A stretch of 64,000 bases of DNA from an uncultured Alphaproteobacteria bacterium (GCA_934234055.1 CAKQGY010000004.1:44631-108630), one strand, 5' to 3'. Shown: positions 17,873-38,214, numbered from the stretch's first letter. Notes: generated from the sequence alone by a model not told the origin. Numbers and translations are program-made.

Positions 17873-17914
17873 AGGAAAATAATCCTTGACATTTGCTCCA
17901 AAATGTGATATAGT
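17873..17914 (+). promoter_or_regulatory. consensus extended -10 sigma70 promoter, copy A (tail-fibre locus)
   Basis: AGGAAAATAATCC-TTGACA (17886-17891), 17 nt ending in TGA, then TATAGT (17909-17914). 47 of 54 nt identical to copy B at 28989. Confidence 0.7.
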
Positions 17915-17973
17915 GTTTTTTGGTTAAAAGGCACCCGTGTATTTGTTGCGCGCGGTGTCTTTTGCTATGTGTG

Positions 17974-18001
17974 CCTTGACCGCCCGGTCGAGGTTTTTTT
18001 T
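17974..18001 (+). terminator. intrinsic terminator inside the leader of the tail-fibre operon
   Basis: CCTTGACC-gccc-GGTCGAGG (one G-U pair) followed by T8. Lies between the promoter and the RBS/GTG at 18026. Confidence 0.65.
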
Positions 18002-18025
18002 AATCCCAAAACAAAGGAAATTATC

Positions 18026-19051
18026 GTGTCTCAACACATTTCTATCAAAAGCATTCCGCCGCGAATTCGCTATGTTTCGGACGGTGTGCGCACCACTTAT
18101 ACTTTCCCGTTCGCGATTTTCAAGGCATCAGATCTGACCTTGTATCTGGACAGCACGGTGCAGCAGGCCGGCTCATTTTCGGTTGCCGGTGTCGGGGACA
18201 GCGACGGCGGGCAGATTACCCTGAGCCAACCGCCGGCTGCGGGTGTCATTATCACTTTGGCGCGCGAATTGACCATAGAACGCACCACCGACTTTCAAGA
18301 GGGGGGTGTGCTGCGTGCCGAGGCTTTGAATCACGAATTGGATTATCAAATTGCGTGTCAACAACAGATTGCCGACAGTCTTAATCGGTCTATGGTTTTA
18401 CCGCCTTATGTGACGGATACAGGCGTGAACCTGACGCTTCCGATACCCAGTGCCGGTAAAGCGATTGTCTGGAACAGCAACGGGACGAATCTGGAAAATT
18501 CAGCAGTTGCAGTTAACGCCCTAGAGTCCACTATTAAGGGGTATCGCGATGAAGCCAAAGGGGCAGCTGCCGTTTCGGCTGCCAAGGCCGACGAAGCCGC
18601 GCAGCAAGCCCAATCCGCCACAGCCTCTGCCGCTACGGCCACAGCCCAAGCGCAACTGGCCACCGGTAAAGCCACCGAAGCTGCCGGAAAGGCTGCCGAA
18701 GCCGCAGCAGTTTTATCTGTCAAAGCTGATGTCGGCCTGGGGAACTTGTCCCAATCCGGTAAAGCCGTTATTGCCGCACTGGGTGTGCCGGATTACAGTG
18801 CTGCCGAATCGCGCACCAAAGGCACCACTTACACCGCCGATCGTCCCGGTGTGCTCAAAGTCTATGTCTCGGGTGTTGGAGGCGAGGGCAAAACCGTCAT
18901 CAACGACATTGAATTTTTGAACAACGGCAACACGATGACGATGACATACCTGCTACCGGTTGCGACGGGCGATACTTATTCGTTTGTCGTGAACAGCGGT
19001 TATGGTTCTAATTTCAGTTTTATCCCGTATAAAGGAGTGTCCAATGATTAA
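18026..19051 (+). CDS. phage tail fibre protein
   Basis: N-terminus IRYVSDGVRTTYTFPFAIFKASDLTLYLD...TIERTTDFQEGGVLRAEALNHELD resembles podoviral fibre N-terminal domains. Ala/Gln-rich coiled coil in the middle, then a distinct C-terminal domain. GTG start after AAAGGA. The track start at 17969 lies inside the terminator. Confidence 0.65.
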   Translation: MSQHISIKSIPPRIRYVSDGVRTTYTFPFAIFKASDLTLYLDSTVQQAGSFSVAGVGDSDGGQITLSQPPAAGVIITLARELTIERTTDFQEGGVLRAEALNHELDYQIACQQQIADSLNRSMVLPPYVTDTGVNLTLPIPSAGKAIVWNSNGTNLENSAVAVNALESTIKGYRDEAKGAAAVSAAKADEAAQQAQSATASAATATAQAQLATGKATEAAGKAAEAAAVLSVKADVGLGNLSQSGKAVIAALGVPDYSAAESRTKGTTYTADRPGVLKVYVSGVGGEGKTVINDIEFLNNGNTMTMTYLLPVATGDTYSFVVNSGYGSNFSFIPYKGVSND

Positions 19052-19352
19052 ATACGCAAAAATAGAAAATGAAACAACGAAATCGTGCATTGTGGGCTTG
19101 GGCAATAACGCAGCCGCCTATCAGGCCCGTGGTATGACTTTGCAAGAGGTAGAGCAGGGCCCTGATGGGAACTGGTATTTGTCCGGATTTGCGCCCGTTG
19201 CCCCGACGCCCGATTATCAAGATTTGCGCCGTGCTGCCTATCCGGCGCTGACCGATCAACTGGATATGATCTATTGGGATCAAGTGAACGGCACGACGAT
19301 TTGGCGTGATACAATTGCCGGCATCAAAGCCGCATACCCCAAACCGGTCTAA
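19044..19352 (+). CDS. tail-fibre chaperone/assembly-like protein (hypothetical)
   Basis: 102 aa (MIKYAKIENETTKSCIVGL...YPALTDQLDMIYWD). ATG overlaps the fibre stop. Pattern resembles small phage fibre-assembly proteins. Confidence 0.45.
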   Translation: MIKYAKIENETTKSCIVGLGNNAAAYQARGMTLQEVEQGPDGNWYLSGFAPVAPTPDYQDLRRAAYPALTDQLDMIYWDQVNGTTIWRDTIAGIKAAYPKPV

Positions 19353-19427
19353 CTCTTTCGGGGCGTGGATTGAACTTTTTTCTCCTCGCCCCGTATTTCC
19401 TGCTGTGTTATTTTTTCTTCCTCTTCC

Positions 19428-19473
19428 GTCATTGCCGGAGACGTCTGACATCTTGTGCCAATCCGCAAGGCAC
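19428..19473 (+). repeat. hairpin repeat family copy (GTCATTGC...CCAATCC type)
   Basis: GTCATTGCCGGAGACGTCTGACATCTTGTGCCAATCCGCAAGGCAC, preceded by a CT-rich tract. Confidence 0.55.
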
Positions 19474-19535
19474 TTAATTCTGTATTATTTCACCACCGGC
19501 CAAGATCGGGCACTTTTCCCTTCTAAAAAAGGCCA

Positions 19536-23076: not shown

Positions 23077-23182
23077 GATCTTTTCCCCATTCTCCCCTAA
23101 CTATTTATCCACACCCCTTTTCTCTGTTTGTCTTCCATCTTTCTTCCGTTATTCTTCCCCCGCCGCCAACCCTCTCTCCCCT

Positions 23183-23258
23183 GTCATTGCACTGCGTAAA
23201 CGAGGACCTGCCAGTGGCCGGTCCAAGTGCGCAAAGCAATGAACCTTGCCTTGAACAA
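23183..23258 (+). repeat. hairpin repeat family copy (expanded loop)
   Basis: GTCATTGCACTGCG...GCGCAAAGCAATGAACCTTGCC, preceded by a CT-rich tract. Confidence 0.5.
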
Positions 23259-23292
23259 GTCCGCCCCTGCGCACGCCGTTCAAGGCTTAGGT

Positions 23293-23336
23293 GGAATTGC
23301 CCATCCGGGGCGTGGCAATCCATTAAATAAGGAGTC
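23293..23336 (+). repeat. hairpin repeat family copy (3' half)
   Basis: GGAATTGCCCATCCGGGGCGTGGCAATCCATTAAATAAGGAGTC. Confidence 0.55.
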
Positions 23337-23341
23337 AATAT

Positions 23342-23370
23342 AAAAACCCCTCCCAAGAAATTGGGAGGGG
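23342..23370 (-). terminator. intrinsic terminator after the pilin-like gene
   Basis: On the minus strand, CCCCTCCCA-atttct-TGGGAGGGG followed by TTTTT. Confidence 0.75.
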
Positions 23371-23389
23371 TAGCAGTCAATCGTAGAGA

Positions 23390-23800
23390 TTACTTTGTTG
23401 CTGCTTTCGTGTCAATTGTAATTGTAGAGTTCGCAGCGTCACCACAATCACCAGAGGCACGGTTGCCTGACAATGTTTTGACTAAATCGCAAACATCTTT
23501 ATAGTCCTTCAGAATTACGACCTCCACAGTACCATCGGTTTTACCGGTAATGGAATCAGCCCCTGTCGGATTGGAAACACCGCCCAAATCCGTATACAGC
23601 ACATCGGCGCCGGCCCCAGTGGCAGCACGAGCGACGGCTTCAATAGCAACCATAGAAGCAGCGTTCAAGATTTCGTTAGCACGATAGCGGTTCATAGCCA
23701 AAGTATAACCGGCAATACCACCGATAGACAGCACACCGATAATCGCCAACACGCCCAACATTTCAACCATTGAACGACCAGATTCATTTACATTTTTCAT
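23390..23800 (-). CDS. type IV pilin / pseudopilin-like protein
   Basis: 136 aa. Class III signal MKNVNESG/RSMVEMLGVLAIIGVLSIGGIAGY, with Glu at +5 after Gly and a hydrophobic helix. Confidence 0.7.
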   Translation of the reverse strand: MKNVNESGRSMVEMLGVLAIIGVLSIGGIAGYTLAMNRYRANEILNAASMVAIEAVARAATGAGADVLYTDLGGVSNPTGADSITGKTDGTVEVVILKDYKDVCDLVKTLSGNRASGDCGDAANSTITIDTKAATK

Positions 23801-25863: not shown

Positions 25864-26499
25864 CTATTGACTAACCCAGATCACGCGTGCCATCCACATG
25901 ACTTCCGGTGTGTCCAGTGCGATATCATCGCATGCCGGGTTTAAGGATTTCAGGATCACCTGCCGTGCCGATCGATGTTCTAATTCTTTAACCATCACTT
26001 CCCCCTTTCGGGTTTTCAGGACGATTCGATCTCCTTTGCGCACTTCCGCATCCGGCGAGACGACCAATTTATCCCCGTCGCGATAGGCAGGCTCCATACT
26101 GTTGCCCGACACTTCCAGGGCATACACCCGTTGTCCCAGATCAAAGGGGAATTCAATACCGTCCCAATCTTCACTGCCCAGCGGATAGCCGTTTGCATCA
26201 AAGTATCCGGCGCGTCCCGCTTTGGCCAAGCCCAACAGGGGGATGACATGCGGTTTTGGGCGATAGGGCTCTCCTGCCAGTTCCATAAATTCAAAGATTG
26301 TCGTATTTGTTGCATTCAGGATTTTATTCATACTTTCCGTCGAGGGCCAGCGTTTTCGCCCGTCCGCGCCGATTCGTTTGGATTTATTAAAGCTGGTTGC
26401 GTCCAAGCCGGCCTTGACTGCCAGCCCCGACAAGGACAACCCCTTGCTTTCCGCCAGGTTTTCAATTCCTTTCCATATTTCCGCATATGTCAGTTGCAT
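25864..26499 (-). CDS. XRE-HTH / S24 peptidase repressor (phage CI-like, LexA-type self-cleaving)
   Basis: 211 aa. N-terminal HTH (GLSLSGLAVKAGLDATSFNKSKR) and C-terminal S24 domain with GNSMEP catalytic Ser motif and a downstream Lys. Confidence 0.8.
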   Translation of the reverse strand: MQLTYAEIWKGIENLAESKGLSLSGLAVKAGLDATSFNKSKRIGADGRKRWPSTESMNKILNATNTTIFEFMELAGEPYRPKPHVIPLLGLAKAGRAGYFDANGYPLGSEDWDGIEFPFDLGQRVYALEVSGNSMEPAYRDGDKLVVSPDAEVRKGDRIVLKTRKGEVMVKELEHRSARQVILKSLNPACDDIALDTPEVMWMARVIWVSQ

Positions 26500-26787
26500 A
26501 ATGCCACTCCTTTTGTTTTTACACAGACCCGTTTCATCACTTTTTTCTTTCGGTATATTCCTATCCTTCGGGGGTGATATCCGCTTTTTATCCTAATTCC
26601 TTTTTACCACACCCACCCGTTTTCGTCAACATATTTTTCACACTTTCCCCACTTTTTTACTCCTTTTCCCCTCTTTTTGGCAAATATCCCCCGCTTTTTC
26701 TAAAATCCTCTTTTCTTATTCTCCCCACTCTCGTCATTTTATTATTATTTAACCATTCCACCCATCCGCCAATCACCTCACCCACCT

Positions 26788-26838
26788 GTCATTGCGATCC
26801 CCCTTGCGGGGCGTGGCAATCCACCCGGCACGAATGCA
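26788..26838 (+). repeat. hairpin repeat family copy
   Basis: GTCATTGCGATCCCCCTTGCGGGGCGTGGCAATCCACCCGGCAC, preceded by about 280 nt of pyrimidine-rich sequence. Confidence 0.6.
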
Positions 26839-26920
26839 ATGTATAGAATCACCCATCCCAGAACAAAAAAACTTGCAAAAAATCCGCAAATTGTTTAAAC
26901 TCAACATATCGGAGGTATAA

Positions 26921-27208
26921 ATGGCCCATAAGGAAAAACAGCCGCCCAAAAGTGATGCTTTAAGTATCCTGTATTTATTGCTAGGGATTCCATATGCTTT
27001 TATAATTGTCATGACCGGAATGTCAAGAGCTAAAACCCTTGATGATATATTTGGTTTATTGACCTTTTTTACGCCGGCGGTTTGCTTATGCCTTTTTGCT
27101 TTTTTCTCCGAAAGGACTTATACGCTGATTAAAGCCCTGTCTGTTATTTTTCTTGTAGTCATAGTAATTGTCTCAGGTGCCCATTTGACTTATTTTATTA
27201 CACACTAA
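26921..27208 (+). CDS. small hypothetical membrane protein
   Basis: 95 aa, 3 predicted TM segments, GGAGG RBS. AT-rich compared with its neighbours. Confidence 0.55.
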   Translation: MAHKEKQPPKSDALSILYLLLGIPYAFIIVMTGMSRAKTLDDIFGLLTFFTPAVCLCLFAFFSERTYTLIKALSVIFLVVIVIVSGAHLTYFITH

Positions 27209-27223
27209 GCGCAACTGCAACTT

Positions 27224-27272
27224 GTCATTGCGAGCCGGCTTGCCGGCGTGGAAATCCATTCAACAAGAAGTC
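27224..27272 (+). repeat. hairpin repeat family copy
   Basis: GTCATTGCGAGCCGGCTTGCCGGCGTGGAAATCCATTCAACAAGAAGTC. Confidence 0.65.
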
Positions 27273-27276
27273 AACT

Positions 27277-27325
27277 GTCATTCTGAGTGGGGCTTGTCCC
27301 CCGAAGAATCCACTAAACATTATAT
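27277..27325 (+). repeat. hairpin repeat family copy (ATTCT/AGAAT variant)
   Basis: GTCATTCTGAGTGGGGCTTGTCCCCCGAAGAATCCACTAAACATTATATC. Confidence 0.65.
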
Positions 27326-27330
27326 CCTTA

Positions 27331-27385
27331 TGCCATTGCGAGGGGCGCAGTGTGCCCCGTGGCAATCCACTGAACACTTAAATCA
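27331..27385 (+). repeat. hairpin repeat family copy
   Basis: TGCCATTGCGAGGGGCGCAGTGTGCCCCGTGGCAATCCACTGAACACTTAAATC. Confidence 0.65.
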
Positions 27386-27423
27386 ATATATTCTTGCACA
27401 CATTTTCCCCCAAAAAAAGAGTA

Positions 27424-27990: not shown

Positions 27991-28228
27991 ATCGCCTCCT
28001 CGGTCGCCCCTTTGATCCCCGGCCCCGTGGCGCGCCTTTCGCCGCCTGAAATGCGGCCTTTGCCGGCCTCTCCCGCCCCTTCGATCTCCCCACTCTTTTT
28101 AGTTGTCTCGCCTATACCATATCCTTTTTGTCCTGTCAATAGGTTTTTTTTCTTATTTTTAGTCTTGACAATTCATTTTTTTTGATTTACTTCTATTTTT
28201 GTGTTTAATTTTAACGAAAGGATAGATT

Positions 28229-28597: not shown

Positions 28598-28610
28598 AAG
28601 GAAATGAAAA

Positions 28611-28985
28611 ATGAAAGATTTAATTGCCACCGGCTATCGTTATCCGTATGCGTATGTTGCCTTTGGCGGCCGCCGCACGAAATGGTGGATGCGTTTTTTG
28701 AAAAGCGGCTTTTATCATTGCGCTTTGGTCTTGGGCAACGGGCGCGAGTGGGTGCTGATAGATCCGTTGATTCACTTCACGGATTTGATTGTGTTAAAGA
28801 ACGCCCCCGTGTGTGCCACCTTGCGTGCCCGGGGCTATCGTCTGGTGCGCACCACGCCCAAAGTGCCGCCCTTGTGCCACACGCCGTTCCGACCGCTCAC
28901 CTGCGTTGAAATCGTCAAGCGTTTTTTGGGTATTAACGCCCCGAAAATCTGGACTCCTTATCAACTTTTTAGATTTTTAACCTAA
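28611..28985 (+). CDS. hypothetical protein
   Basis: 124-aa ORF directly upstream of promoter copy B. No family recognised. Confidence 0.5.
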   Translation: MKDLIATGYRYPYAYVAFGGRRTKWWMRFLKSGFYHCALVLGNGREWVLIDPLIHFTDLIVLKNAPVCATLRARGYRLVRTTPKVPPLCHTPFRPLTCVEIVKRFLGINAPKIWTPYQLFRFLT

Positions 28986-28988
28986 AAA

Positions 28989-29030
28989 AGGAAAATAATC
29001 CTTGACATTCGCAAAAAAGTGTGATATAGT
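28989..29030 (+). promoter_or_regulatory. consensus extended -10 sigma70 promoter, copy B (portal operon)
   Basis: AGGAAAATAATCC-TTGACA (29002-29007), 17 nt ending in TGA, then TATAGT (29025-29030). 47 of 54 nt identical to copy A. Confidence 0.7.
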
Positions 29031-29037: not shown

Positions 29038-29073
29038 AGTTAGCGGCTGGGACTCTATCCGCTGACTTTTTTT
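29038..29073 (+). terminator. intrinsic terminator 1 in the portal-operon leader
   Basis: AGTTAGCGG, 12-nt loop, CCGCTGACT (9 bp, one G-U), running into T7. Confidence 0.6.
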
Positions 29074-29075
29074 AT

Positions 29076-29107
29076 CGGGTTAGCCCACCGGCCGACCCGT
29101 TTTTTTT
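29076..29107 (+). terminator. intrinsic terminator 2 in the portal-operon leader
   Basis: CGGGTTAGCC-cacc-GGCCGACCCG (10-position stem with one mismatch and one G-U) followed by T8. RBS AAGGAG and ATG at 29128 follow. Confidence 0.7.
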
Positions 29108-29127: not shown

Positions 29128-30594
29128 ATGACGGATATACAACATTTGTATCATCGTTTCCGACGTGCTCAGGCGATTCGTGCCGATTGGGAGCCCGTTT
29201 GGCAGTCGTGTTATGAATACGCCCTGCCGCATCGTGAAAGTATGTTCAACCCCACGCACACGCCGTTGGGTCATTTGTTTGACGGCACGGCGCCCGATGC
29301 CGTGGATCAGTTGGCCGCGCTTATGCTGTCCGAGCTCACGCCTCCCTGGCTGCGTTGGTTTCGCTTGACTGCCGGCACGGATTTGTCGGCCGATTCGGGC
29401 ACCCGCATTGCGCCGGATTTAGAGCACATTTCTCAGGTTGTTCAGACTCATTTTGACCGATCCAATTTCGCGTTAGAGGTGCACCAGTGTTATTTTGATC
29501 TGATTACAGCCGGCACGGCCTGCCTGTTGTTCGAGGAGGCTCCCGTCGGGTCATCTTCGGCGTTTCTGTTCACGGCGGTTCCGTTGTCTCAGGTTTATTT
29601 ATCCCAAGGTTCTTCCGGCCGCCTGGACACGACTTTCCGCCGGTGTTCACTGGATTTTGAGGCTTTTTGTGCCCGTTTTCCCGAGTTTCACTTGCCCGAT
29701 CGTCTTCCGCGCTCAGCCAACCCCGACGATGTCAAGCTGGACATTTTGGAGTCGGTCGCGCCGGCGCCGGGGGGTGGCTTTACCTACACGGCGTTTTTGA
29801 ATCCCGAGACTTTGCCGGATTTTCTGCCTCGCACGGATCTGTTGTTGCGCGAGTCGCATTATACGACATCGCCGTTCATTGCGTTTCGTTGGCTCAAAGC
29901 CCCGGGCGAGGTTTACGGTCGTTCGCCGGTGATGAAGGCACTGCCCGATATCAAGACCGCCAACAAAGTGGTTGAGTTGATTTTAAAGAACGCCTCTATT
30001 TCCGTCACGGGCATTTGGTTGGCCGAGGACGACGGCGTCTTGAATCCGGCGAACATACATTTGACTCCGGGCGCGATTATCCCCAAGGCCGTCGGTTCCA
30101 AGGGTCTCACGCCGCTGGAAGCCCCCGGCAAGTTTGATGTGTCCCAACTGGTGATAGAGGATTTGCGCAAGCGGATTCGCCACGCGCTATTGGGCGACAA
30201 ACTGGGCGAGGTCGCGACCCCCGCCATGACGGCGACCGAGGTCCTAGAGCGTTCTGACGAAATGATGCGCATATTGGGTGCGACATACGGCCGCCTGCAA
30301 ACCGAGCTGCTGACGCCGCTTTTGGCGCGTGCGGTTCAGATTTTGCGTCGTCGTGGTGAGATTCCCGAGGTGTATCTGGACGGCCGTCTGCTTGCCGTCG
30401 CGTATCAGTCTCCCCGCGCGGCCAAGCAAGGGCAGATTGACGCCAACAACGCGCTTTTGTGGCTGACGAATGTGGCCAAGCTCGGCGAGTCGGGCCTGTC
30501 GCAGATTGACATCGGCACATTTGTGCGGTGGCTGGGGGACAAGCTCGGCGTGCCTGATTCGGTTCTTTCCCCGCCGATGGGAGGGATTCAATGA
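29128..30594 (+). CDS. phage portal (head-tail connector) protein, podovirus type
   Basis: 488 aa, first gene of the operon. N-terminus LYHRFRRAQAIRADWEPVWQSCYEYALPHRE recalls T7-type connector proteins. Followed by scaffold-like and capsid genes. Confidence 0.6.
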   Translation: MTDIQHLYHRFRRAQAIRADWEPVWQSCYEYALPHRESMFNPTHTPLGHLFDGTAPDAVDQLAALMLSELTPPWLRWFRLTAGTDLSADSGTRIAPDLEHISQVVQTHFDRSNFALEVHQCYFDLITAGTACLLFEEAPVGSSSAFLFTAVPLSQVYLSQGSSGRLDTTFRRCSLDFEAFCARFPEFHLPDRLPRSANPDDVKLDILESVAPAPGGGFTYTAFLNPETLPDFLPRTDLLLRESHYTTSPFIAFRWLKAPGEVYGRSPVMKALPDIKTANKVVELILKNASISVTGIWLAEDDGVLNPANIHLTPGAIIPKAVGSKGLTPLEAPGKFDVSQLVIEDLRKRIRHALLGDKLGEVATPAMTATEVLERSDEMMRILGATYGRLQTELLTPLLARAVQILRRRGEIPEVYLDGRLLAVAYQSPRAAKQGQIDANNALLWLTNVAKLGESGLSQIDIGTFVRWLGDKLGVPDSVLSPPMGGIQ

Positions 30595-30797
30595 CCGCCG
30601 CCGCCTTTGCCCGCCTGTTTAACCGGCCCGAGGCCGCCGCGGTTTTATCCGCCCTCCGGCGCCTCACTCAGCAGCGTGTTTTGCCGCCCACCGCCTCCGA
30701 TCGCGAGGTTTGGTATCTGGAAGGCCAGCGCGCGCTTTTCGCAACCATTTTATCATTCATTCAACAAGGTCAACAACCCAAGGAGAAACAACCATGA
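30591..30797 (+). CDS. hypothetical phage protein
   Basis: 68 aa. ATGA overlap with the portal stop. Confidence 0.45.
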   Translation: MTAAAFARLFNRPEAAAVLSALRRLTQQRVLPPTASDREVWYLEGQRALFATILSFIQQGQQPKEKQP

Positions 30798-31489
30798 CCC
30801 AAACAAACCAACAACCGCAAACGCCGGCCGCCGTGCCGACATCTGACACACCCGTCCCGTCCAAGTTCCAAAATCCGGACGGCAGCCTCAATTCGGACGC
30901 GCTGTTAAAGTCCTATTTGGCGCTGGAAAAGAAGTTGGGCGATTCGGCCAAATCCCCGTCCGCTGCGGGATCGCGCCCGGACAAGCCGACCGATTACGAT
31001 ATCCGATTGTCCAGCGACCTGATGCATGTGGACGAATCGATCAACAAACGCCTGTTTGACCTTGGTTTCACCAACGCCCAGGCACAATTTGTCTATGACT
31101 TGGCGGCCGAGAAAGTCATTCCGCTGTTGCAAAATGTGATTCAGACATTCCAAACGGATCGTGCGTTATCGGATTTAGAGCAGTATTTCGGCGGAGCAGA
31201 TCGCTTCAACACGGTCGCGCGCCAGATTTCCGCCTGGGGAGAAAAGCACTTAAACCGCTCGGTTTTTGAAGCCCTTTCCGCCAGTAAGGACGGCATTCTC
31301 ACGCTTTACAAGATGATGACCGACGGGCGCGAGCCGGGCGTGCTGCCGCCCGCTGATTCGAGCGAACCGGCCGACACCGAAGAGTCTTTGAAACGCCTGA
31401 TGCAGGATCCCAAGTATTGGAAAAAGCAGGATCCCGATCTGGTGCGCCGCATAGAAAACGGGTTCAAGCGTCTCTATCCGGCTCAATAG
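30794..31489 (+). CDS. capsid scaffolding-like protein
   Basis: 231 aa from the ATG after AGGAGA. Gln/Pro-rich N-terminus, otherwise helical and charged. Position between portal and capsid as in T7 gp9. Confidence 0.45.
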   Translation: MTQTNQQPQTPAAVPTSDTPVPSKFQNPDGSLNSDALLKSYLALEKKLGDSAKSPSAAGSRPDKPTDYDIRLSSDLMHVDESINKRLFDLGFTNAQAQFVYDLAAEKVIPLLQNVIQTFQTDRALSDLEQYFGGADRFNTVARQISAWGEKHLNRSVFEALSASKDGILTLYKMMTDGREPGVLPPADSSEPADTEESLKRLMQDPKYWKKQDPDLVRRIENGFKRLYPAQ

Positions 31490-31639
31490 TTTCGGGCGGA
31501 TAACTCTTTCGAGCCCGCCTATGGGGCACCGTCCTCGTCGGGATTGTGCCTGTTTTGGGGATTCGTCCCCGCTTGTCGTGCGGCGACCTTTGGCCATAAC
31601 CGCCGACATTTTTTTTAACATTATGAAAGGAAAAAACTT

Positions 31640-32485
31640 ATGACAACAACAACGATTGATGCGTCATTCATCAAACATTTTGAAGCCGACGTGCACACCG
31701 CCTATCAGCAACAAGGCTCCAAACTCAAAAACACGGTCCGGTCCAAGACCAATGTCGCCGGTGCTTCCACGACTTTCCAAGTCATCGGCACCATGGCCGC
31801 CACGACCAAAACGCGTAATGCCCAGATTACTTCATCGGCTGTCACACACGCGCCGGTTGAATGCACACTGACGGATTATTATGCCGGCGAATGGGTGGAT
31901 CAGCTGGACGAATTAAAAGTCGGCCATGACGAGCGCAAAGCCCTGGCTTCGGCGGGTGCGTATGCCCTGGGGCGCAAGACGGACGACCTGATTATTGCCG
32001 CGCTCAACACGGCGACGCAAACGGCCGGCACCAAGGCCGAAGCGCTTACCAAAGACCGGATCTTACAGGCTTTCACGATCTTAAACGAAAACGATGTGCC
32101 AGACGACGGCGAACGGTATGCGCTGGTCGGACCGGATCAATGGAATCAACTGCTGTCTATTGAGGAGTTCTCGTCCGCCAACTATGTGGGCGATGCGTAT
32201 CCGATGCTGACCGGTTCCGAAAGTCGCAAGTGGATGGGGATTGTCTGGATTATGCACAATGCTTTGCCCAAGACAACCACAACCCACACTTGCTTTATTT
32301 ACCACAAATCCGCCGTCGGCCATGCTTCGGGTCAGGATATCCAAACCGATATCACCTGGCACGGCGACTATGCGGCTCACTTTGTCAATAATATGATGAG
32401 CCAAGGTGCCTGCCTCATAGATCCCAAGGGCGTCGTTAAAATGGAGTGCCTGGACACCCCGCCGACGACAACCGGCAACGGCTGA
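31640..32485 (+). CDS. major capsid protein
   Basis: 281 aa. N-terminus IDASFIKHFEADVHTAYQQQGSKLKNTVRSKTNVAGASTTFQVIG resembles P22-coat/HK97-fold podoviral capsids as I recall them. A strong terminator lies directly downstream. Confidence 0.6.
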   Translation: MTTTTIDASFIKHFEADVHTAYQQQGSKLKNTVRSKTNVAGASTTFQVIGTMAATTKTRNAQITSSAVTHAPVECTLTDYYAGEWVDQLDELKVGHDERKALASAGAYALGRKTDDLIIAALNTATQTAGTKAEALTKDRILQAFTILNENDVPDDGERYALVGPDQWNQLLSIEEFSSANYVGDAYPMLTGSESRKWMGIVWIMHNALPKTTTTHTCFIYHKSAVGHASGQDIQTDITWHGDYAAHFVNNMMSQGACLIDPKGVVKMECLDTPPTTTGNG

Positions 32486-32506
32486 TAGCAACCATGCAAC
32501 CACGGG

Positions 32507-32540
32507 GGAGGGGAGGGTTATCCTCTCCTCCTTTTTTTTT
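32507..32540 (+). terminator. intrinsic terminator directly after the capsid gene
   Basis: GGAGGGGAGG-gttat-CCTCTCCTCC followed by T9, 22 nt after the stop. Confidence 0.7.
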
Positions 32541-32557
32541 AACAGGAGTTTTTTGAT

Positions 32558-33127
32558 ATGACTTTTTCCGCAACAGATATTTGCTCGCATGCGCTGGTAA
32601 AATTGGGGGCCGGCACGATTTCGTCGTTTTCCGAGAACACGACCGGAGCCCGCATTGCCGAGCAACTTTACACCCCCACCACCGACGCGCTTTTGGCGTC
32701 TTATCCGTGGCGTTTTGCCTTGGCGCAAAGTGTGCTTGCGCGCCTGGCCGATACGCCGGCGTCCGATTATCGGTATGCGTATGCTCTGCCGGCGGATTGC
32801 CTGCGTGTGTTATCGGCCGGCACCGGCACGCACAGCCGCGGGCTCAACTACCGCTTGACCGGCCAGCAATTACACACTGACGCCGAGCAGGTCTTGCTGA
32901 CTTATATTTCCCGTCCGGCCGAGCGCCAATTCCCGGCCTTTTTCACCCAAGCCCTGACCGCCCAGCTGGCCGCCGAGTTTTGCCTGCCGCTGACCGAAAG
33001 CACGACCCGAACGGATTATTTGCGCAAGATTGCCACCGAGACGATTCAGCAAGCCCGCCTTGCCGACAGCCAGCAATCCGTTCCTTCGTCGTTTCAGGAT
33101 TTTTCATTGATTGAGGTGCGCCAATGA
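32558..33127 (+). CDS. tail tubular protein A / adaptor-like
   Basis: 189 aa. ICSHALVKLGAGTISSFSENTTGARIAEQLY...ASYPWRFA pattern. Size and position match T7 gp11-type proteins. Confidence 0.5.
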   Translation: MTFSATDICSHALVKLGAGTISSFSENTTGARIAEQLYTPTTDALLASYPWRFALAQSVLARLADTPASDYRYAYALPADCLRVLSAGTGTHSRGLNYRLTGQQLHTDAEQVLLTYISRPAERQFPAFFTQALTAQLAAEFCLPLTESTTRTDYLRKIATETIQQARLADSQQSVPSSFQDFSLIEVRQ

Positions 33128-35043
33128 CGAACCTGTTCACGACCAAGACAAATTTTTCCGCCGGAGCGCTTTCGCCGGATCTGCTGGGTCGCGTAGACCT
33201 CAAATCGTATGACAACGGCGCGCTGGTGCTTGAAAATGTGTTTATTCAACCAACTGGCGGGGTCTATCGGCGTTTCGGCACGCGCTACCTGGCGGATTTT
33301 GCGACTTCCGGCCGCCTGATTGCCTATACCAAAAGCGCGTCTGAATCCTATCTCATCGTGCTTCAAGATCAATCCGCCCGCATTTACCGCGACGGCGTAT
33401 TGCAAACCACGCTGGAAACCCCGTGGAGCGCGTCCCAAATAGCGTCGGTTTGTTGGTGCTCGGGGGGCGATGCGCTTTATTTCACGCACCCCGATGTCGC
33501 CCCGCAAAGGCTCACCGGCTCGGGCAACAGCTGGATCTTGTCCGCCTTTACTTTTTTGACCGAGGATCAGTGCCTGCGCCAGCCCTATCATCGATTTTCG
33601 GATGATTCCACGACTTTGTCCGCGTCGGCCGTCACGGGCAGTATTACGCTGACAGCCTCATCCGATGTGTTTTTGAATCGCCATATCGGCACGCCGTTCA
33701 AGGTTGCCGCGGGCTATGTCCAAATCACGGCGGTTGAATCGCCCCGTTCGGCCACCGCCACCGTGCTGAAAAAGCTGGTCGAGTCCGCCGGCGATACCGA
33801 CAGTCTTGCTCCGACGCGCAGTTGGGGCGAGCCGGCATTTTCCGCCGCATACGGTTGGCCGCGCACGGTTGCGTTTTATCAGTCGCGCCTGGTTTTCGGC
33901 GGTAGCAAAAGTCTCCCCAACCACCTGTGGTTCAGCCAATCCGGCGACCTCACGAACTTTGAGCTCGGCGACGGCTATGATTCCGAGGGGATTGAGTTTT
34001 CGCTGCTCTCTGATCAAGACAACACGATCTGTGCGTTATTTGCCGGCCGTCATTTACAGGTGTTCACCACGAATGCCGAGTGGATGGTTTCCGGCGATCC
34101 GCTGACGCCCACGAATATCCAGCTCAAACGCCAGACTCAGGTCGGTTCTCCCGCGGATCGTTTTGTGCCCCCCATCGGCATAGACGGCGCCACGATTTTC
34201 CCGGCTGCCAACGGGCGCGAGGTGCGCGAGTTCCTTTTTGCGGATATTGAGCAAGCCTACCAGGCCACCGACTTGTCATTATTGTCGTCGCACCTGATTG
34301 CCACGCCGGTGGATCAGGCGTATGACAAACATCATCGCCAAGCCTACCTTGTTATGGCCGACGGACGCCTGTGTGTGCTGACCAGTTTCCGAGCCGAGGA
34401 CATCCAAAGCTGGACCGACCAGACCACAGCCGGTGCGTTTTTATCCGTCGCCGTTGCGGGGGCTAAAACCTACCTGCTGGTGCGGCGCGGTGATCGGTAT
34501 TATTTAGAGGAGTTCACGCCGGATCTTCATACAGACTGCGGCTTTTTGCTGACGGCCGAAACCCCGACCACGACCTTTACGGGCCTGGCACCCTTAAACG
34601 GCCAAACGGTCAAGGTTCTTGCCGACGGCACGCCGATGCCCGACATGGTTGTCGCAAACGGACAAATCATACTTCCGTATGCGGCACGACGGGTTGAGGT
34701 GGGTCTTCCGTTCACACACGACATTACGCCCCTGCCGCCCGCCGTCGGAGCCAGCAACGGCGCCGCTCCCGTCTCGTCTGCGCGCTTGGTCAAAGCGGTG
34801 TTTCGCCTGATAGACACTTGTTCGTTTCAGGTCGACACCGGCACCGGTTTTCATCAAGAATTGGTGCCGACCTTGTCGGATTATCGGCTGGATACGCAAT
34901 TGCCCGCTCAAACGGCGGACATAGCCATACGATCGTTGGGGTGGCGAACGACACCCACGGCACCGTTATGGCACATTCGCGGGGATTTACCCCAATCATT
35001 CAAACTCGTCAGTGCCACCACTGACATACAAATCGGAGGATAA
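33124..35043 (+). CDS. tail tubular protein B / nozzle-like
   Basis: 639 aa. N-terminus NFSAGALSPDLLGRVDLKSYDNGALVLENVFIQPTGGVYRRFG. Position after the adaptor-like gene. ATGA coupling. Confidence 0.5.
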   Translation: MTNLFTTKTNFSAGALSPDLLGRVDLKSYDNGALVLENVFIQPTGGVYRRFGTRYLADFATSGRLIAYTKSASESYLIVLQDQSARIYRDGVLQTTLETPWSASQIASVCWCSGGDALYFTHPDVAPQRLTGSGNSWILSAFTFLTEDQCLRQPYHRFSDDSTTLSASAVTGSITLTASSDVFLNRHIGTPFKVAAGYVQITAVESPRSATATVLKKLVESAGDTDSLAPTRSWGEPAFSAAYGWPRTVAFYQSRLVFGGSKSLPNHLWFSQSGDLTNFELGDGYDSEGIEFSLLSDQDNTICALFAGRHLQVFTTNAEWMVSGDPLTPTNIQLKRQTQVGSPADRFVPPIGIDGATIFPAANGREVREFLFADIEQAYQATDLSLLSSHLIATPVDQAYDKHHRQAYLVMADGRLCVLTSFRAEDIQSWTDQTTAGAFLSVAVAGAKTYLLVRRGDRYYLEEFTPDLHTDCGFLLTAETPTTTFTGLAPLNGQTVKVLADGTPMPDMVVANGQIILPYAARRVEVGLPFTHDITPLPPAVGASNGAAPVSSARLVKAVFRLIDTCSFQVDTGTGFHQELVPTLSDYRLDTQLPAQTADIAIRSLGWRTTPTAPLWHIRGDLPQSFKLVSATTDIQIGG

Positions 35044-35044
35044 T

Positions 35045-35521
35045 ATGGAAGCTGCCCCAATCATCGCCGTTGCAGCAACGGCAACCGCTGCTTATTACAG
35101 CAAGAAGAATATGGATACCCAACGCAAGGAAGTCAAGGCCGCCCGTGCCGCCAATGCGCGCCAGTATGATCTGGACGCGGCTCAGGCCCGCCTGGCTCTT
35201 GAAGAGGAACAGCGCAAGAATCGCAATCTGCTGCGCCAACAACAATCCGCCTATCGGGCGCGATTGGGGGCGGGGGGAATGAGTGCGACTTCCGGCACCG
35301 GCCAAGCGGTTTTGGATTCGCTCCAAGCCGAGCACGATACCGAGGACAAGTATCTTGTCAATCAGGCCAACATCTCGCTGGAAGCGCTGCTCAACAGTGT
35401 GAATGCGCGCAACACGCAAAACCTGCTGTCGTTGTCGGCGTTGAATAATCGAACGAACGCCAACACCGCCTCGGCCATCAGCCGTATTTCCACATCGGCC
35501 GGCCGTTCGGTCTTAAAGTAA
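35045..35521 (+). CDS. internal virion / membrane-anchored coiled-coil protein
   Basis: 158 aa from the ATG after GGAGGA. N-terminal TM segment followed by a Gln/Arg-rich coiled coil. Confidence 0.4.
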   Translation: MEAAPIIAVAATATAAYYSKKNMDTQRKEVKAARAANARQYDLDAAQARLALEEEQRKNRNLLRQQQSAYRARLGAGGMSATSGTGQAVLDSLQAEHDTEDKYLVNQANISLEALLNSVNARNTQNLLSLSALNNRTNANTASAISRISTSAGRSVLK

Positions 35522-35534
35522 AGGAGAGCCCGCT

Positions 35535-35855
35535 ATGCCGGATCAGGAAGATACTTTTTCGGATTTGCGTGCCCCTTTAACCGAGGCTTTGCATCAGGCT
35601 TTGACTTCCTATCTGGCGTTTCGGGCAACCCCTGCGCCGCTGGATGATGCCAAAGCCTTTACCGCGCACCACAACGCGTGCAAGTCTGCTTTATTGCATA
35701 TGGCACTTTTGCTTAAACTGTCGTTGGCGTTGGATCGCCCGCGACAGGAAACAACGATGACTGATTGGCTGGATTTGGCCCGTCAGGCTCTTGAAAACGA
35801 GGATACAGATGACACAAACATCACATCGCCCGACACGCCGCTCGTCTTTGAGTGA
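35535..35855 (+). CDS. hypothetical protein (possible small terminase subunit)
   Basis: 106 aa, AGGAGA RBS. Its end overlaps the terminase large-subunit start. Assignment is by position only. Confidence 0.35.
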   Translation: MPDQEDTFSDLRAPLTEALHQALTSYLAFRATPAPLDDAKAFTAHHNACKSALLHMALLLKLSLALDRPRQETTMTDWLDLARQALENEDTDDTNITSPDTPLVFE

Positions 35856-37254
35856 GTTTGTCTGGATTTGGGATCGGACTCAGGGCTTGTCCATTCCCAA
35901 ACACCACCGCAAGATGATACGCTTTTTATCATTTTTGCAAGCCCCCGATTCGCCACGCAACGGGCTTTTAATGGCCTTTCGCAATTCCGGAAAATCGACA
36001 CTGGTGGGGTTATTTTGCGCGTGGCTTTTAACGCGCAACGCCAACACCCGTATTTTAATTTTATCGGCCGATTATGCGTTGGCCAAGAAAATGGTTCATC
36101 ACATTAAACAGGTGATAGAACACCACCCCCTGTGTGCGGGTCTCAAACCCCCGACACTGGAAGAGTGGGCTTCTGACCGTTTTACGGTGTGCCGCTCCAA
36201 ACACTTGCGCGATCCGTCTGTGTTGGCTCATGGCCTGATGGGGAATATAACGGGTTGCCGCGCCGATGTCATCATTTGCGATGATGTCGAGGTTCCCAAA
36301 ACCTGCGCCACCACGGCGCGCCGGGCGGATTTGCGGCAAAAATTGGGCGAGCTGGATTATATCCTGACCCCGGGCGGCATCTTTTTGTATGTCGGCACCC
36401 CGCATGCCTCGGATACGATTTACAATACCGAGGCCGGCGGATTTTTGGCCGATTGGCCGGTGCTGCGTGTGCCGCTGCTGACGGCCGACGGCACTTCGGC
36501 GTGGCCCGAACGGTTCAGTTTGGCGCGCATACAAAACCTGCGCCGCCGATCGGGCGCCACCCGATTTCGCAGCCAAATGCTGCTGGAACCAACGGCATGG
36601 ACCGCCTGTCGCCTGGATCCCGCCCGCCTGCATATCTATGACGGCGAGTTGAATTATCGCGAAGCCAACGGCCAAGGCATTTTAACCTTAAACGGCCGGC
36701 GATTGGTGAACGGGGCGTGTTGGTGGGATCCGGCGTTTGGGGCTCCCACCGGGGATCGCAGCGTCGTCGCCTGCGTCTTTTTTGACGAAGCCGGCAATGC
36801 CTATATCCACCGAGTGCAGTATTTAACCGTCCCGCCCGCGGCCGAGGCCACCGCCAGCCAATGTGCCCAGGTCGCGGGTCTGGTGGCGGAATGTTATATG
36901 CCCGCAGTGCATCTGGAAAGCAACGGCATCGGCAAGTTTTTGCCCGCCCTGTTGCGCCGGGAATTGACCCGCCGGCGGCTGCCCTGCACCGTGTTGGAAG
37001 AAACCAGCAGCCGCAGCAAAACCGAGCGTATTTTATCCGCCTGGGAGGCGCCGCTGATGAACGGGTCGCTGTTTATTCATCGCTCGATTCGGGAAACGCC
37101 GCTGTTGCGGGAAATGCAAGATTGGCGCCCGTTCGGCGACCGGGTCCACGATGACGGCCTGGACGCGGTGGCGGGTGCTTTGTTATCAACACCGGTGCGA
37201 CTGGGGCGTTTTCCGAACAGCACCCCGCAGGCACCGTTTTTATGGAGGATTTAA
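35809..37254 (+). CDS. terminase large subunit
   Basis: About 481 aa. Walker A FRNSGKST, Walker B DVIICDDVE, C-terminal nuclease-like half. ATG after GAGGA; the track start at 35791 is TTG. Confidence 0.75.
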   Translation: MTQTSHRPTRRSSLSEFVWIWDRTQGLSIPKHHRKMIRFLSFLQAPDSPRNGLLMAFRNSGKSTLVGLFCAWLLTRNANTRILILSADYALAKKMVHHIKQVIEHHPLCAGLKPPTLEEWASDRFTVCRSKHLRDPSVLAHGLMGNITGCRADVIICDDVEVPKTCATTARRADLRQKLGELDYILTPGGIFLYVGTPHASDTIYNTEAGGFLADWPVLRVPLLTADGTSAWPERFSLARIQNLRRRSGATRFRSQMLLEPTAWTACRLDPARLHIYDGELNYREANGQGILTLNGRRLVNGACWWDPAFGAPTGDRSVVACVFFDEAGNAYIHRVQYLTVPPAAEATASQCAQVAGLVAECYMPAVHLESNGIGKFLPALLRRELTRRRLPCTVLEETSSRSKTERILSAWEAPLMNGSLFIHRSIRETPLLREMQDWRPFGDRVHDDGLDAVAGALLSTPVRLGRFPNSTPQAPFLWRI

Positions 37255-37255
37255 G

Positions 37256-37666
37256 ATGGATACGGAAACAGATATTTTGGCGCGAACCCTGTATGGTGAA
37301 GCGCGCGGCGAGGGTCTGAAAGGGATAGAAGCCGTCGCCGCCGTTATTTTGAATCGGGTGCGGTATGCGGCCGCGGGCGGACCGCGCTGGTGGGGGCGCA
37401 CGGTGCGTGAAGTGTGCCTGAAACCTGCACAATTTTCGTGCTGGAACGCTGCGGATCCCAACCGGGTAAAATTGACGGGGGATTTGGCGGATGATCCGGT
37501 TTTTGCGATTTGTCGGCGGGTGGCGGTGCGCGCGATAAAAGGCATATTGCCGGATCCGACGCACGGCGCGACTCACTATCATGCGTTGTCGGTCAATCCG
37601 CGGTGGGCATCGGCTCTGATCCCGACGGCGCAAATCGGAAACCACTTGTTTTACACGTGTTTATAG
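37256..37666 (+). CDS. cell-wall hydrolase, SleB/CwlJ (Hydrolase_2) type endolysin
   Basis: LARTLYGEARGEGLKGIEAVAAVILNRV...QFSCWN...THYH motifs. GGAGGA RBS right after the terminase stop. Confidence 0.8.
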   Translation: MDTETDILARTLYGEARGEGLKGIEAVAAVILNRVRYAAAGGPRWWGRTVREVCLKPAQFSCWNAADPNRVKLTGDLADDPVFAICRRVAVRAIKGILPDPTHGATHYHALSVNPRWASALIPTAQIGNHLFYTCL

Positions 37667-37675
37667 GAGGAAAAT

Positions 37676-37981
37676 ATGGCAACACTGACCATAGAAATCG
37701 GTAAATTGATGGCGCAGGTGGAGACCCTGCAAAAGCAGTTGACCGAAATTAAAAAAGAAATCGGGCAGACAAAAAATCAGGTCGCCGATGTGCATAACGA
37801 ACTGTTGAATTTTATGACAACCGTTCAAACGAAAACCGCTTGCCAAGGTCTGCACGATAAGTTGGCGGCGGCGTATGTGCCTCGGGCCGAGATTGCGCCG
37901 TTAAAAACCGTGGCGGGGATGGTGGCACTGACCACCGTGACCGCGATCGGGGCGGCGTTTTTTAACCTCATCTTGAAATGA
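37676..37981 (+). CDS. coiled-coil protein with C-terminal TM segment (holin/spanin-like)
   Basis: 101 aa, AGGAGG RBS. C-terminus VAGMVALTTVTAIGAAFFNLILK. Confidence 0.45.
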   Translation: MATLTIEIGKLMAQVETLQKQLTEIKKEIGQTKNQVADVHNELLNFMTTVQTKTACQGLHDKLAAAYVPRAEIAPLKTVAGMVALTTVTAIGAAFFNLILK

Positions 37982-37995
37982 AAGGAGAAAATCAG

Positions 37996-38181
37996 ATGAT
38001 GACATTTATTATGACTTATTGGAATGAAATGCTGATTGCCGTATCGGGGATTATCAGCGGCGCCAGCGCGTTGGCCGCCTTGACGCCCACGCCGCGTGAT
38101 GATGCGTTTTGGTCCAAAATTAAAAAAGCCGTTGACTTGGTGGCCCTGAATGTCGGGTATGCCAAGCCGGCAACGGCCTAG
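37996..38181 (+). CDS. small phage membrane protein (holin-like)
   Basis: 61 aa. TM segment then TPTPRDDAFWSKIKKAVDLVALNVGYAK, a motif seen in small phage membrane proteins. Confidence 0.45.
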   Translation: MMTFIMTYWNEMLIAVSGIISGASALAALTPTPRDDAFWSKIKKAVDLVALNVGYAKPATA

Positions 38182-38188
38182 GGAAAAA

Positions 38189-38214
38189 ACAGCCCCGGAA
38201 CACCCCGGGGCTGT
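38189..38214. terminator. terminator hairpin between convergent genes
   Basis: Perfect 10-bp stem ACAGCCCCGG / CCGGGGCTGT. The A-run on the plus side gives T6 on the minus strand, downstream of 38220..39059. Confidence 0.7.

Follow-up and report, generated by a model that had tools for sequence, protein, structure and literature searches.

We analyzed a stretch of 64,000 nucleotides (nt) from an uncultured gut alphaproteobacterium represented by a metagenome-assembled genome (MAG) (GCA_934234055.1, CAKQGY010000004.1:44631-108630; the whole stretch is termed the window herein, and the organism's own genome was covered over this window only). The window carries a set of podovirus-like head, tail, packaging, and lysis genes, divided between two chromosomal sites, and a putative control module, which together are referred to here as the element. 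A preliminary description, made from the sequence, had read the particle genes as a domesticated phage such as a gene transfer agent (GTA).

T7-type particle genes lie in two unlinked operons

The genes assigned to the element are as follows, beginning with the control module (o122, o124, and o106 are our names for small open reading frames [ORFs]).

25864 to 26499, minus strand: CI-like repressor facing away from the particle genes, its DNA-binding region at the N terminus and an S24 autopeptidase domain at the C terminus (PF00717, E 3e-22; phrog_4, transcriptional repressor, E 2e-25)
28229 to 28597, plus strand: o122, a conserved four-helix protein, always the first gene after S24
28611 to 28985, plus strand: o124, with invariant His36, Cys98, and Glu100 in the alignment; an ancestral phage late gene
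29128 to 30594, plus strand: portal, T7 gp8 type (PF12236, E 1e-120)
30591 to 30797, plus strand: Bbp19-like small protein (PF25181, E 9e-13)
30794 to 31489, plus strand: scaffold, T7 gp9 type (PF05396, E 4e-13)
31640 to 32485, plus strand: major capsid protein (PF19821, E 4e-74; phrog_3437, E 3e-81)
32558 to 33127, plus strand: tail tubular protein A, gp11-type adaptor (phrog_394, E 7e-51)
33124 to 35043, plus strand: tail tubular protein B, gp12-type nozzle (phrog_376, E 1e-127)
35045 to 35521, plus strand: gp14-like internal virion protein, a weak match (phrog_418, E 1e-6; PF24072, E 0.004, under the Pfam cutoff)
35535 to 35855, plus strand: o106, 106 amino acids (aa), directly 5' of the large terminase gene (phrog_31793, a family without a functional label)
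35809 to 37254, plus strand: large terminase, TerL (phrog_38, E 1e-76; weak PF22530, T7 terminase RNaseH-like domain)
37256 to 37666, plus strand: SleB-type cell wall hydrolase, the endolysin (PF07486, E 3e-20; phrog_938)
37676 to 38181, plus strand: two small membrane proteins, holin/spanin candidates by the hydrophobic segments in their translations (the second matches phrog_9685)
18026 to 19051, plus strand: tail fiber with a T7 gp17-type N-terminal tail attachment domain, an Ala-rich coiled coil, and a hypervariable C-terminal domain (PF03906, E 2e-4; phrog_1640, E 5e-21)
19044 to 19352, plus strand: small chaperone-like gene coupled to the fiber gene (phrog_9114 and phrog_1787, families without functional labels)

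Pfam and PHROG profile searches of both loci bore out the particle identities, and the T7-like gene content and order that the preliminary description had proposed for 29128 to 38181 agree with the matches from portal through lysin. The translational coupling it had described is visible in the gene calls as 4-nt start/stop overlaps at several junctions. The scaffold start at 30794 follows the gene call in locus L081; the start of the chaperone-like gene at 19044 is inferred, the mechanical ORF beginning at 19002. The TerL translation shows a Walker A (SGKST) and a Walker B (IICDD) motif. Since o106 is always found immediately 5' of terL and travels with terL in a rearranged lineage (see below), its position alone makes it a candidate small terminase. 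We considered whether o106 might be the counterpart of the protein encoded 5' of the terminase in Vibrio phage CKB-S2, and found no similarity between the two. The two small membrane proteins are kept 3' of the lysin in the gut lineage. No large ORF suited to a T7 internal core or ejection role was found in the cluster here or in relatives, where there is only the weak gp14-like protein. An 846-aa protein encoded 3' of the scaffold gene in locus L084 was considered as a substitute for gp16 and rejected, as it was found in only two other loci and resembles inserted cargo.

As stated in the preliminary description, the sole fiber gene and its chaperone-like partner (18026 to 19352) lie about 10 kb from the main operon, with core genes between them. 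The intervening genes are rpsU, an RHH_4 gene, lon, a pilin-like gene, rpmJ, lnt, and the S24 gene.

The element is conserved in gut and rumen lineages and in Rhodospirillales

Portal relatives 54 to 73% identical to the window protein were found in at least 590 GTDB species genomes, and the best 80 of these were compared as loci by tblastn with all window proteins. The best 80 comprise gut and rumen MAGs named "Alphaproteobacteria bacterium," cultured Rhodospirillales, and a few MAGs labeled otherwise that have the same architecture. Cultured carriers belong to the genera Magnetospirillum, Paramagnetospirillum, Phaeospirillum, Caenispirillum, Terasakiella, Telmatospirillum, and Haematospirillum. 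The order throughout is S24 (minus strand), o122, o124, portal, Bbp19, scaffold, capsid, tubular A, and tubular B, and among these best loci S24, o122, and o124 lie 5' of the portal gene in 61 of the 64 with enough upstream sequence. The preliminary description had left S24 outside the element and the ORFs at 28229 to 28985 unnamed; the relatives show that S24, o122, and o124 belong to it.

Three architectures can be told apart. In the first, that of the window, gut MAGs carry the cluster without the fiber. In the second, a rearranged gut type, o106, terL, the lysin gene, and the holin genes are placed ahead of the portal gene in one operon. In the third, the Rhodospirillales type, the fiber gene lies inside the cluster, 3' of tubular B, and host genes often sit between scaffold and capsid, such as those for a 2-hydroxyacid dehydrogenase and a gamma-glutamyl transpeptidase in L084. 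Host genes were found inside the cluster in L084, L038, and L053, and other loci of this type are broken after the scaffold gene. Of 266 relatives in the IMG/VR database, the best 80 share the gene layout of the genome loci, and S24 marks the start of the predicted viral region in many of the longer ones. Linkage to lnt persists across the gut lineage, and lnt identity drops with portal identity (63 to 41% versus 72 to 58%). A human fecal contig labeled "Bacteriophage sp." (MT838907; 55% portal identity) proved to be a 5-kb fragment without annotation and was uninformative on packaging.

Several loci differ from the window in small genes. Most lineages (L020, L021, L024, L026 to L028, L030, L034, L084, and others) have, between the leader and the portal gene, a conserved small ORF of about 65 to 100 aa that ends in ...K(K/T)LLGE; it is absent from the window, and tblastn gave no match in the closest relatives, L001 to L019. 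An extra ORF of about 100 aa (...YANGFTLW.Y...), possibly encoding a decoration protein, occurs 3' of the capsid gene and before the terminator in L026, L030, L034, and L042 and is likewise absent from the window. The 846-aa protein mentioned above (L084, 13019 to 16095; also in L023 and L066) is accompanied in L084 by a 179-aa partner and has the look of toxin/immunity-type cargo. Capsid tblastn alignments run across a stop codon in a minority of loci (3/61 genome loci and 7/66 IMG/VR loci), for which alignment run-over, assembly errors, and a frameshift of the T7 gene 10A/10B kind are candidate explanations.

A conserved divergent control region separates S24 from o122

The following features lie between S24 and o122.

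26500 to 28097: species-specific insertion between S24 and its ancestral promoter, outside the ancestral element as judged from the spacer length in relatives
28098 to 28228: ancestral divergent control region, from a by-eye alignment with the conserved spacer of relatives
28134 to 28139, minus strand: -35 element for S24, TGTCAA
28165 to 28170, plus strand: -35 element for o122, TTGACA
28190 to 28204: degenerate GTTC-N7-GTTC box, reading CTTC-N7-GTGT

The S24-o122 spacer of relatives is 130 to 240 nt long and contains back-to-back -35 elements, with a GTTC-N7-GTTC direct repeat between the o122 promoter and start codon. The repeat is intact in most of the gut loci among L001 to L021 and in L024, L028, and L037, and it has the form of the alphaproteobacterial LexA (SOS) box. 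The insertion of 1.6 kb in the window holds a 95-aa membrane ORF (26921 to 27208) and C-rich tandem and dispersed repeats of 44/54 nt (27400 to 27960). Its repeat-rich part (about 27235 to 27850-27920) fails to align cleanly among strains of the same species that are approximately 98% identical elsewhere.

The o122 family forms 605 clusters at 50% identity (1.84 billion proteins), and its AlphaFold2 model has a mean confidence (pLDDT) of 82.6. It had no match in Pfam, PHROG, or PDB sequence profiles with alignments of 24 and 79 sequences, no phage homologue was found by tblastn against 50,697 phage records, and a Foldseek comparison of the model with the PDB gave nothing significant (best E 1.7). 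From its setting, o122 may be considered a candidate late-gene activator or antiterminator. For o124, no Pfam or PDB match was obtained, and a single-sequence AlphaFold2 model was too poor for use (pLDDT 44.5). About 50 temperate Vibrio podophages (genomes of about 32 to 35 kb) encode a homologue between their terminase and portal genes (at 6950 to 7408 in CKB-S2, locus L177), which identifies o124 as an ancestral phage late gene.

Both late operons share a promoter block and a terminator-containing leader

The late operons are preceded or interrupted by the following elements.

17868 to 17926, plus strand: late promoter block of the fiber operon, TAGGAAAATAATCC abutting a -35 element TTGACA (17886 to 17891), a 17-nt spacer, and a TG-extended -10 element TATAGT (17909 to 17914)
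17921 to 18002, plus strand: fiber leader, a hairpin with conserved GTGTATT (17937 to 17943), then a terminator-like hairpin at 17973 to 17994 with a T-run; the same layout precedes the fibers of L087 to L089
28984 to 29042, plus strand: late promoter block of the main operon, -35 element at 29002 to 29007 and -10 element at 29025 to 29030
29038 to 29107, plus strand: main-operon leader, a hairpin with CTCTATC (29053 to 29059) and a T-run, and a second terminator-like hairpin at 29076 to 29099 with a T-run (RNAfold)
32504 to 32534, plus strand: strong intrinsic terminator right after the capsid gene, in the position of T7 T-phi (14-bp stem, T9)

That both loci share one promoter type, as had been proposed, is confirmed: the two 59-nt blocks are 86% identical, follow the pattern TTGACA-17-TGnTATAGT, and are the two matches in the window, where 0.00 were expected. 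These are promoters of the sigma-70 type. Abutting the -35 element, the block takes the form of an imperfect palindrome, TAGGAAAA-N3-5-TCYTTGAC, which in several species is the perfect AGGAAAATTTTCCT. The block is conserved 5' of the portal gene or late operon in gut lineages and in some GC-rich Rhodospirillales; of its 46 occurrences in 2.5 Mb of related loci, 44 precede the portal gene, the late operon, or a stand-alone fiber gene. Here and in other species, the unlinked fiber gene shares the promoter and leader of the main operon.

The leaders, found at the same position in loci L001 to L091, are built alike: each has a 5' arm, a motif that lies within a hairpin or beside it, a hairpin resembling an intrinsic terminator, with its T-run, ahead of the ribosome-binding site, and a 3' arm covarying with the 5' one. 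Across the family the motif reads sTGYRTYC; motif and downstream terminator are found in all lineages, and the terminator sequences differ. With the leaders aligned by MAFFT, the hairpins fell out of register and RNAalifold therefore predicted no pairs; folds of single sequences and a duplex test of cognate against noncognate arms were used instead. Cognate pairing of the 5' and 3' arms averaged -10.5 kcal/mol versus -7.8 kcal/mol for noncognate pairs, a value reached in 0 of 10,000 permutations. No Rfam family matched the leaders. A hairpin with a T-run is also present in the post-capsid spacer of 35 of 60 relatives.

Because both transcripts cross the leader hairpin and an intrinsic terminator, and there is a further terminator after the capsid gene, antitermination appears likely, and the leader is a candidate new antitermination or attenuation element. 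The layout of Q-type or HK022 put-type antitermination (a promoter-proximal element followed by terminators) is present and conserved, and the fold matches of o122 to Q21 were nonsignificant. This regulatory model is built on motif conservation and folding only.

Unlinked fiber genes adjoin surface-polysaccharide loci

Among 116 homologues of the fiber, residues 1 to 180 are conserved and residues 260 to 341 are hypervariable, the hypervariable part being 14 to 26% identical to that of the window. Stand-alone homologues (45 to 58% identical) were examined in eight other gut alphaproteobacterial contigs, each as the lone phage-like gene; six of the eight (L089 to L091 and L173 to L175) have an ORF of 94 to 102 aa directly 3' of it. 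The promoter block precedes five of the eight, and the leader and terminator were present as well in all three that were read through (L087 to L089). In all eight contigs (L087 to L091 and L173 to L175), a surface-polysaccharide biosynthesis cluster of varying gene content adjoins the fiber gene, and the opposite flank differs each time. The window fiber sits 3' of a GT2/GDP-mannose dehydratase/epimerase/GT2/DegT operon (region 12040 to 19352), and with the window included an unlinked fiber gene adjoins a surface-polysaccharide locus in 9/9 genomes. This suggests, as a hypothesis, that the specificity of the particle might be genetically coupled to the cell's own glycan.

The element genes are intact and under purifying selection

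Matches to the element genes are full length wherever a contig end does not cut them (portal, 80/80; tubular A, 59/59; tubular B, 57/57; capsid, 61/61). Between species, the ratio of nonsynonymous to synonymous substitution rates (dN/dS, or omega) was 0.01 to 0.2 for nearly every element gene in nine informative pairs from four lineages, reaching 0.3 in the least diverged pair; one further pair was saturated. The portal, scaffold, capsid, and TerL genes are among the most strongly constrained (omega, 0.01 to 0.07), and lnt gave values similar to those of element genes (0.06 to 0.07). Three other assemblies of the same species are 98.2 to 98.7% identical to the window. Within the species, the element has an omega of 0.044 to 0.055 and a dS of 0.048 to 0.062, compared with an omega of 0.02 to 0.04 and a dS of 0.05 for lon, lnt, and macB taken together (against L081 and L082). 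The dS of the element equals that of the host genes, and the element therefore diverges in step with the chromosome. Its GC content tracks that of the flanks from 0.33 to 0.69 (r = 0.987) and lies slightly above it in 43 of 54 loci.

Decayed ORFs in relatives, which the preliminary description had named as evidence that would speak against it, were not what we found: purifying selection is strong in close and distant relatives alike. An inert, neutrally decaying cryptic prophage that merely looks intact in this genome would be in keeping with the lack of detected replication and integration genes and with the disrupted control region of the window species. Such a remnant is already contradicted, and we consider it highly improbable, given genes that are full length across 161 related loci, dN/dS values of 0.01 to 0.2 in nearly all informative comparisons and of 0.05 within the species, and a noncoding promoter and leader conserved at a distance of 54 to 73% protein identity. 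Neither a decaying remnant nor a recent or mobile prophage fits any of the data on intactness, dN/dS, dS, GC content, and lnt. By these measures, the element is inherited vertically with its host and has been under purifying selection over long periods, as judged from conservation, synteny, and selection estimates.

The element resembles the late region of temperate podophages

The nearest portals of sequenced phages, those of pelagiphages, are 30 to 35% identical to that of the element. Temperate podophages with a T7-type structural module and no phage RNA polymerase (CKB-S2; Pelagibacter phage EXVC031P "Hodr"; HTVC019P-type phages) have a homologous portal and the same local order of terminase, o124-like gene, portal, small gene, scaffold, capsid, and tubular A. 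The corresponding stretch of Vibrio phage CKB-S2 (34.7 kb) runs integrase, small gene, terminase, o124-like gene, small gene, portal, small gene, scaffold, capsid, and next gene. As the order o124, portal, small gene, scaffold, capsid is shared, the element looks like a temperate podophage of this kind that has been reduced to its late region and no longer has integration, replication, or early genes. Phages of this group, which likely represent the ancestral type, have complete genomes of 32 to 36 kb with an integrase and many early genes, in contrast to the element in the window. The T7-like phages (Autographivirales) share with it the gp8 portal, gp9 scaffold, gp10 capsid, gp11/gp12 tail proteins, and gp17 fiber N terminus, but they encode their own single-subunit RNA polymerase and DNA replication genes, neither of which was found in the window or flanks of the element.

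Capsid-forming phage-inducible chromosomal islands (cf-PICIs) and other satellites differ in having an integrase, an AlpA-type regulator, a pri-rep module, and att sites; no such families recur in the flanks of the element. In addition, cf-PICIs lack a tail of their own, whereas the element encodes one. VSH-1 of Brachyspira and BaGTA of Bartonella are domesticated phage-derived particle systems that, like the element, have divided or dispersed coding regions; unlike it, they stem from other phage ancestors and occur in other host phyla or orders.

Like the GTAs of the RcGTA type (Rhodobacter capsulatus; CcGTA of Caulobacter; Rhodogtaviriformidae), the element has chromosomal, vertically inherited head, tail, and lysis genes, no genes for replication or integration, and commonly controlled accessory genes at separate sites. 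Purifying selection, a slightly raised GC content, and, probably, regulation by host stress are further shared traits. RcGTA has an HK97-type, siphovirus-like structural module that includes genes for a prohead protease and a long tail, whereas the element is T7-type and podovirus-like: all its structural genes match T7-type families, and neither a prohead protease nor a tape measure gene of an HK97-type or siphovirus module was found in it. The regulators also differ by description, namely, S24, o122, and o124 in the element and GafA/GafYZ, CtrA, or RogA in the RcGTA type. Large RcGTA-like clusters are absent from Rhodospirillales (PMC5721377), and the CcGTA cluster is controlled by antitermination through GafYZ (PMC11150451). 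FpGTA of Faecalibacterium prausnitzii, termed the first podovirus-like GTA-like element in a 2026 paper (PMC12946183), is similar by description in its gut host, its GTA-like nature and probable podovirus-like morphology, and its two operons, one for head and packaging and one for tail fiber, receptor binding, and lysis (PMC12946183). It differs in that the host is a Firmicute and that packaging of host DNA was shown by experiment (PMC12946183), while the present element is read from its genes. Our literature searches returned no report of a podovirus- or T7-type GTA in Alphaproteobacteria or Magnetospirillum, and as far as the searchable literature goes, no characterized alphaproteobacterial GTA has this podoviral gene order, as the preliminary description had stated.

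Mobility and replication genes were not found in the window or recurrently in the flanks

None of 47 ORFs scanned in the window encodes an integrase, recombinase, or phage replication protein, in agreement with the preliminary description; polA and dnaX in the window are the host's own. A flanking tRNA, said to be lacking, is present in the form of a single tRNA-Ser gene at 10635 to 10723, but no integrase lies beside it: when this site was examined, the next gene was tyrS, followed by the polysaccharide operon. The flanks of 161 related loci were compared over up to 10 kb each, and no integrase or replication family recurs in them. A Pfam census of 269 flank ORFs from 56 loci (141 from the S24 side; 128 from the opposite side or from within breaks) covered the 25 most frequent families, such that a rare integrase in single loci would escape it; no integrase or replication family was among the 25, and the families are housekeeping only (lnt, the atp operon, Cys/Met enzymes, LysRS, type II secretion, and MatE). 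The Rhodospirillales clusters are contiguous, with the fiber inside, and yet they have no mobility or replication module; the complete contiguous prophage in relatives that the preliminary description had named as a finding against it was not seen.

A still-mobile element, either a helper-dependent satellite similar to cf-PICIs or part of an active prophage with its integration and replication genes elsewhere or beyond the examined sequence, would account for the CI-like repressor beside morphogenesis genes, an arrangement known from temperate phages. Integrases are encoded by the closest real phages, which are temperate podophages; IMG/VR tools label the regions proviruses, and the flanks were examined to 10 kb only. 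We nevertheless regard such an element as unlikely. In addition to the lack of a recurring integrase, primase, or rep family in the 269 flank ORFs, the other genes of the window are housekeeping genes, core genes separate the fiber from the cluster, and host genes interrupt the cluster in several genera. Its dS equals that of neighboring host genes, its GC content is fully ameliorated, and in the gut lineage the linkage to lnt is kept while lnt and portal identities fall together.

Other features of the window

The rest of the window consists of housekeeping genes, including tyrS, the polysaccharide operon, MacAB-TolC, nth, polA, pheST, queH, era, dnaX, ppa, kdsB, and a VirB4-like gene. The last, at 2115 to 4547, encodes an 810-aa VirB4/TrbE-like ATPase and has housekeeping genes around it at the window's left end. 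The pilin-like gene on the minus strand at 23390 to 23800, between lon and rpmJ, has a C-terminal part (23119 to 23624) that is unalignable between strains of the same species, and its product is 136 aa long in the window, 145 aa in L081, and 133 aa in L082. A 33-nt intergenic repeat (GCGTGGCAATCCATT...GAGTCAA) occurs in five copies, at 20026, 23310, 24001, 26811, and 27246, with TGTCATTGCGA often in front of it; the window genome appears to carry it as a dispersed, REP-like element.

Discussion

The findings are best explained by a temperate podophage that was domesticated long ago and whose remnant, passed on vertically, has kept control, morphogenesis, packaging, and lysis genes and is most likely a GTA-like system, a reading to which we assign a probability of roughly 0.6. 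At the sequence level, it shows the traits of a GTA: chromosomal phage-like structural, packaging, and lysis genes, no replication, integration, or excision genes of its own found in the window and 10-kb flanks, and vertical inheritance. Each ground examined on which the preliminary description had said that domestication could fall instead supported it. The element is probably a new GTA lineage.

We infer a mode of action, from the induction signal and antitermination to packaged DNA, DNA transfer, and glycan targeting, as follows. A stress or DNA damage signal would act on the control region, where S24 autocleavage and/or LexA would lift repression, and o122 and o124 would then be expressed. 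The two unlinked late operons, the main one and that of the fiber and its chaperone-like partner, would fire from the same strong sigma-70 promoter block. At the leader, RNA polymerase would be made terminator resistant, with o122 as the candidate factor, resembling the GafYZ-controlled Caulobacter GTA (PMC11150451) or lambdoid Q/put systems. Procapsids of portal, scaffold, and capsid proteins would be filled by TerL with available DNA, i.e., chromosomal DNA since nothing replicates the element, and adaptor, nozzle, and fibers would be added to the filled heads. The SleB-type lysin and the two membrane proteins would lyse the producer cell and free the particles, and the hypervariable fiber tip, encoded beside the cell's own surface-polysaccharide locus, may steer them to cells with matching glycans.

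Several points weigh against a GTA-like system. Particles, their DNA content, and DNA transfer are predictions from the genes, and the organism is an uncultured MAG seen over a 64-kb window. The cluster here and in relatives yielded no homologue of gp15 or gp16, the ejection proteins of T7, and DNA entry into a recipient is hard to explain because of this. RcGTA delivers DNA into the periplasm, from which it is taken up by a competence-type route; the absence of gp15/gp16 would fit such a delivery, but it tells against the transfer hypothesis to the same degree. For the small terminase, position is the only basis of assignment. No relative of o122 with a known function was detectable, and fold matches to sigma region 4 and Q21 were nonsignificant (E > 2) and were not used. 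In the window species the control region is altered, with a 1.6-kb insertion that splits S24 from its promoter and a degenerate GTTC-N7-GTTC box. Finally, the coding span is 20.3 kb (17868 to 38181), and related phages hold 32 to 36 kb; if the capsid holds about 35 kb as they do, the whole 20-kb span could fit into it, and the GTA criterion of a capacity smaller than the coding region may fail.

A domesticated particle system might instead have been selected for a function other than DNA delivery, such as stress-triggered altruistic lysis that releases DNA or public goods, a killer or bacteriocin-like particle against glycan-matched competitors, or a means of decoying or excluding related phages. 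The lysis cassette, the CI/SOS-type control region, and the missing gp15/gp16-type ejection proteins are all compatible with this, and linkage of the fiber to a glycan locus would suit the targeting of competitors too. The strong constraint on portal, scaffold, capsid, and TerL (omega, 0.01 to 0.07) is, however, hard to explain without a need for DNA-filled heads, and known phage-derived killer particles (tailocins) have neither heads nor terminases. We consider a function of this kind clearly less probable than a GTA-like one, though the most credible of the alternatives.

Turning from these alternatives to the GTA-like reading, we tentatively propose, as an extension that we rate as possible and not as the expected outcome, that a deep alphaproteobacterial branch without RcGTA, composed of Rhodospirillales and the uncultured gut/rumen lineage, has an independently domesticated, T7-derived GTA of its own, whose late operons would be gated by a new leader/terminator device together with o122 and whose fiber gene in the gut lineage would have moved beside a hypervariable surface-polysaccharide locus. 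If so, particle specificity and the cell's own surface would be inherited together, amounting to built-in kin recognition for DNA exchange. The promoter/leader/terminator unit, as a possibly new antitermination device, and the fiber-glycan linkage, as a possible coupling of particle specificity to the self surface, can each be studied on their own.

Few independent GTA lineages are known, and a single HK97-type siphophage is the source of all those characterized in Alphaproteobacteria. Several carriers of the element are cultured, including magnetotactic model genera, which makes the prediction directly testable. A second, podovirus-derived lineage would, if true, mean that phage particles have been domesticated more than once in a single class of bacteria. 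The element is conserved in Rhodospirillales as well as in an abundant uncultured gut/rumen clade, and it would be a candidate route of gene exchange for bacteria without RcGTA.

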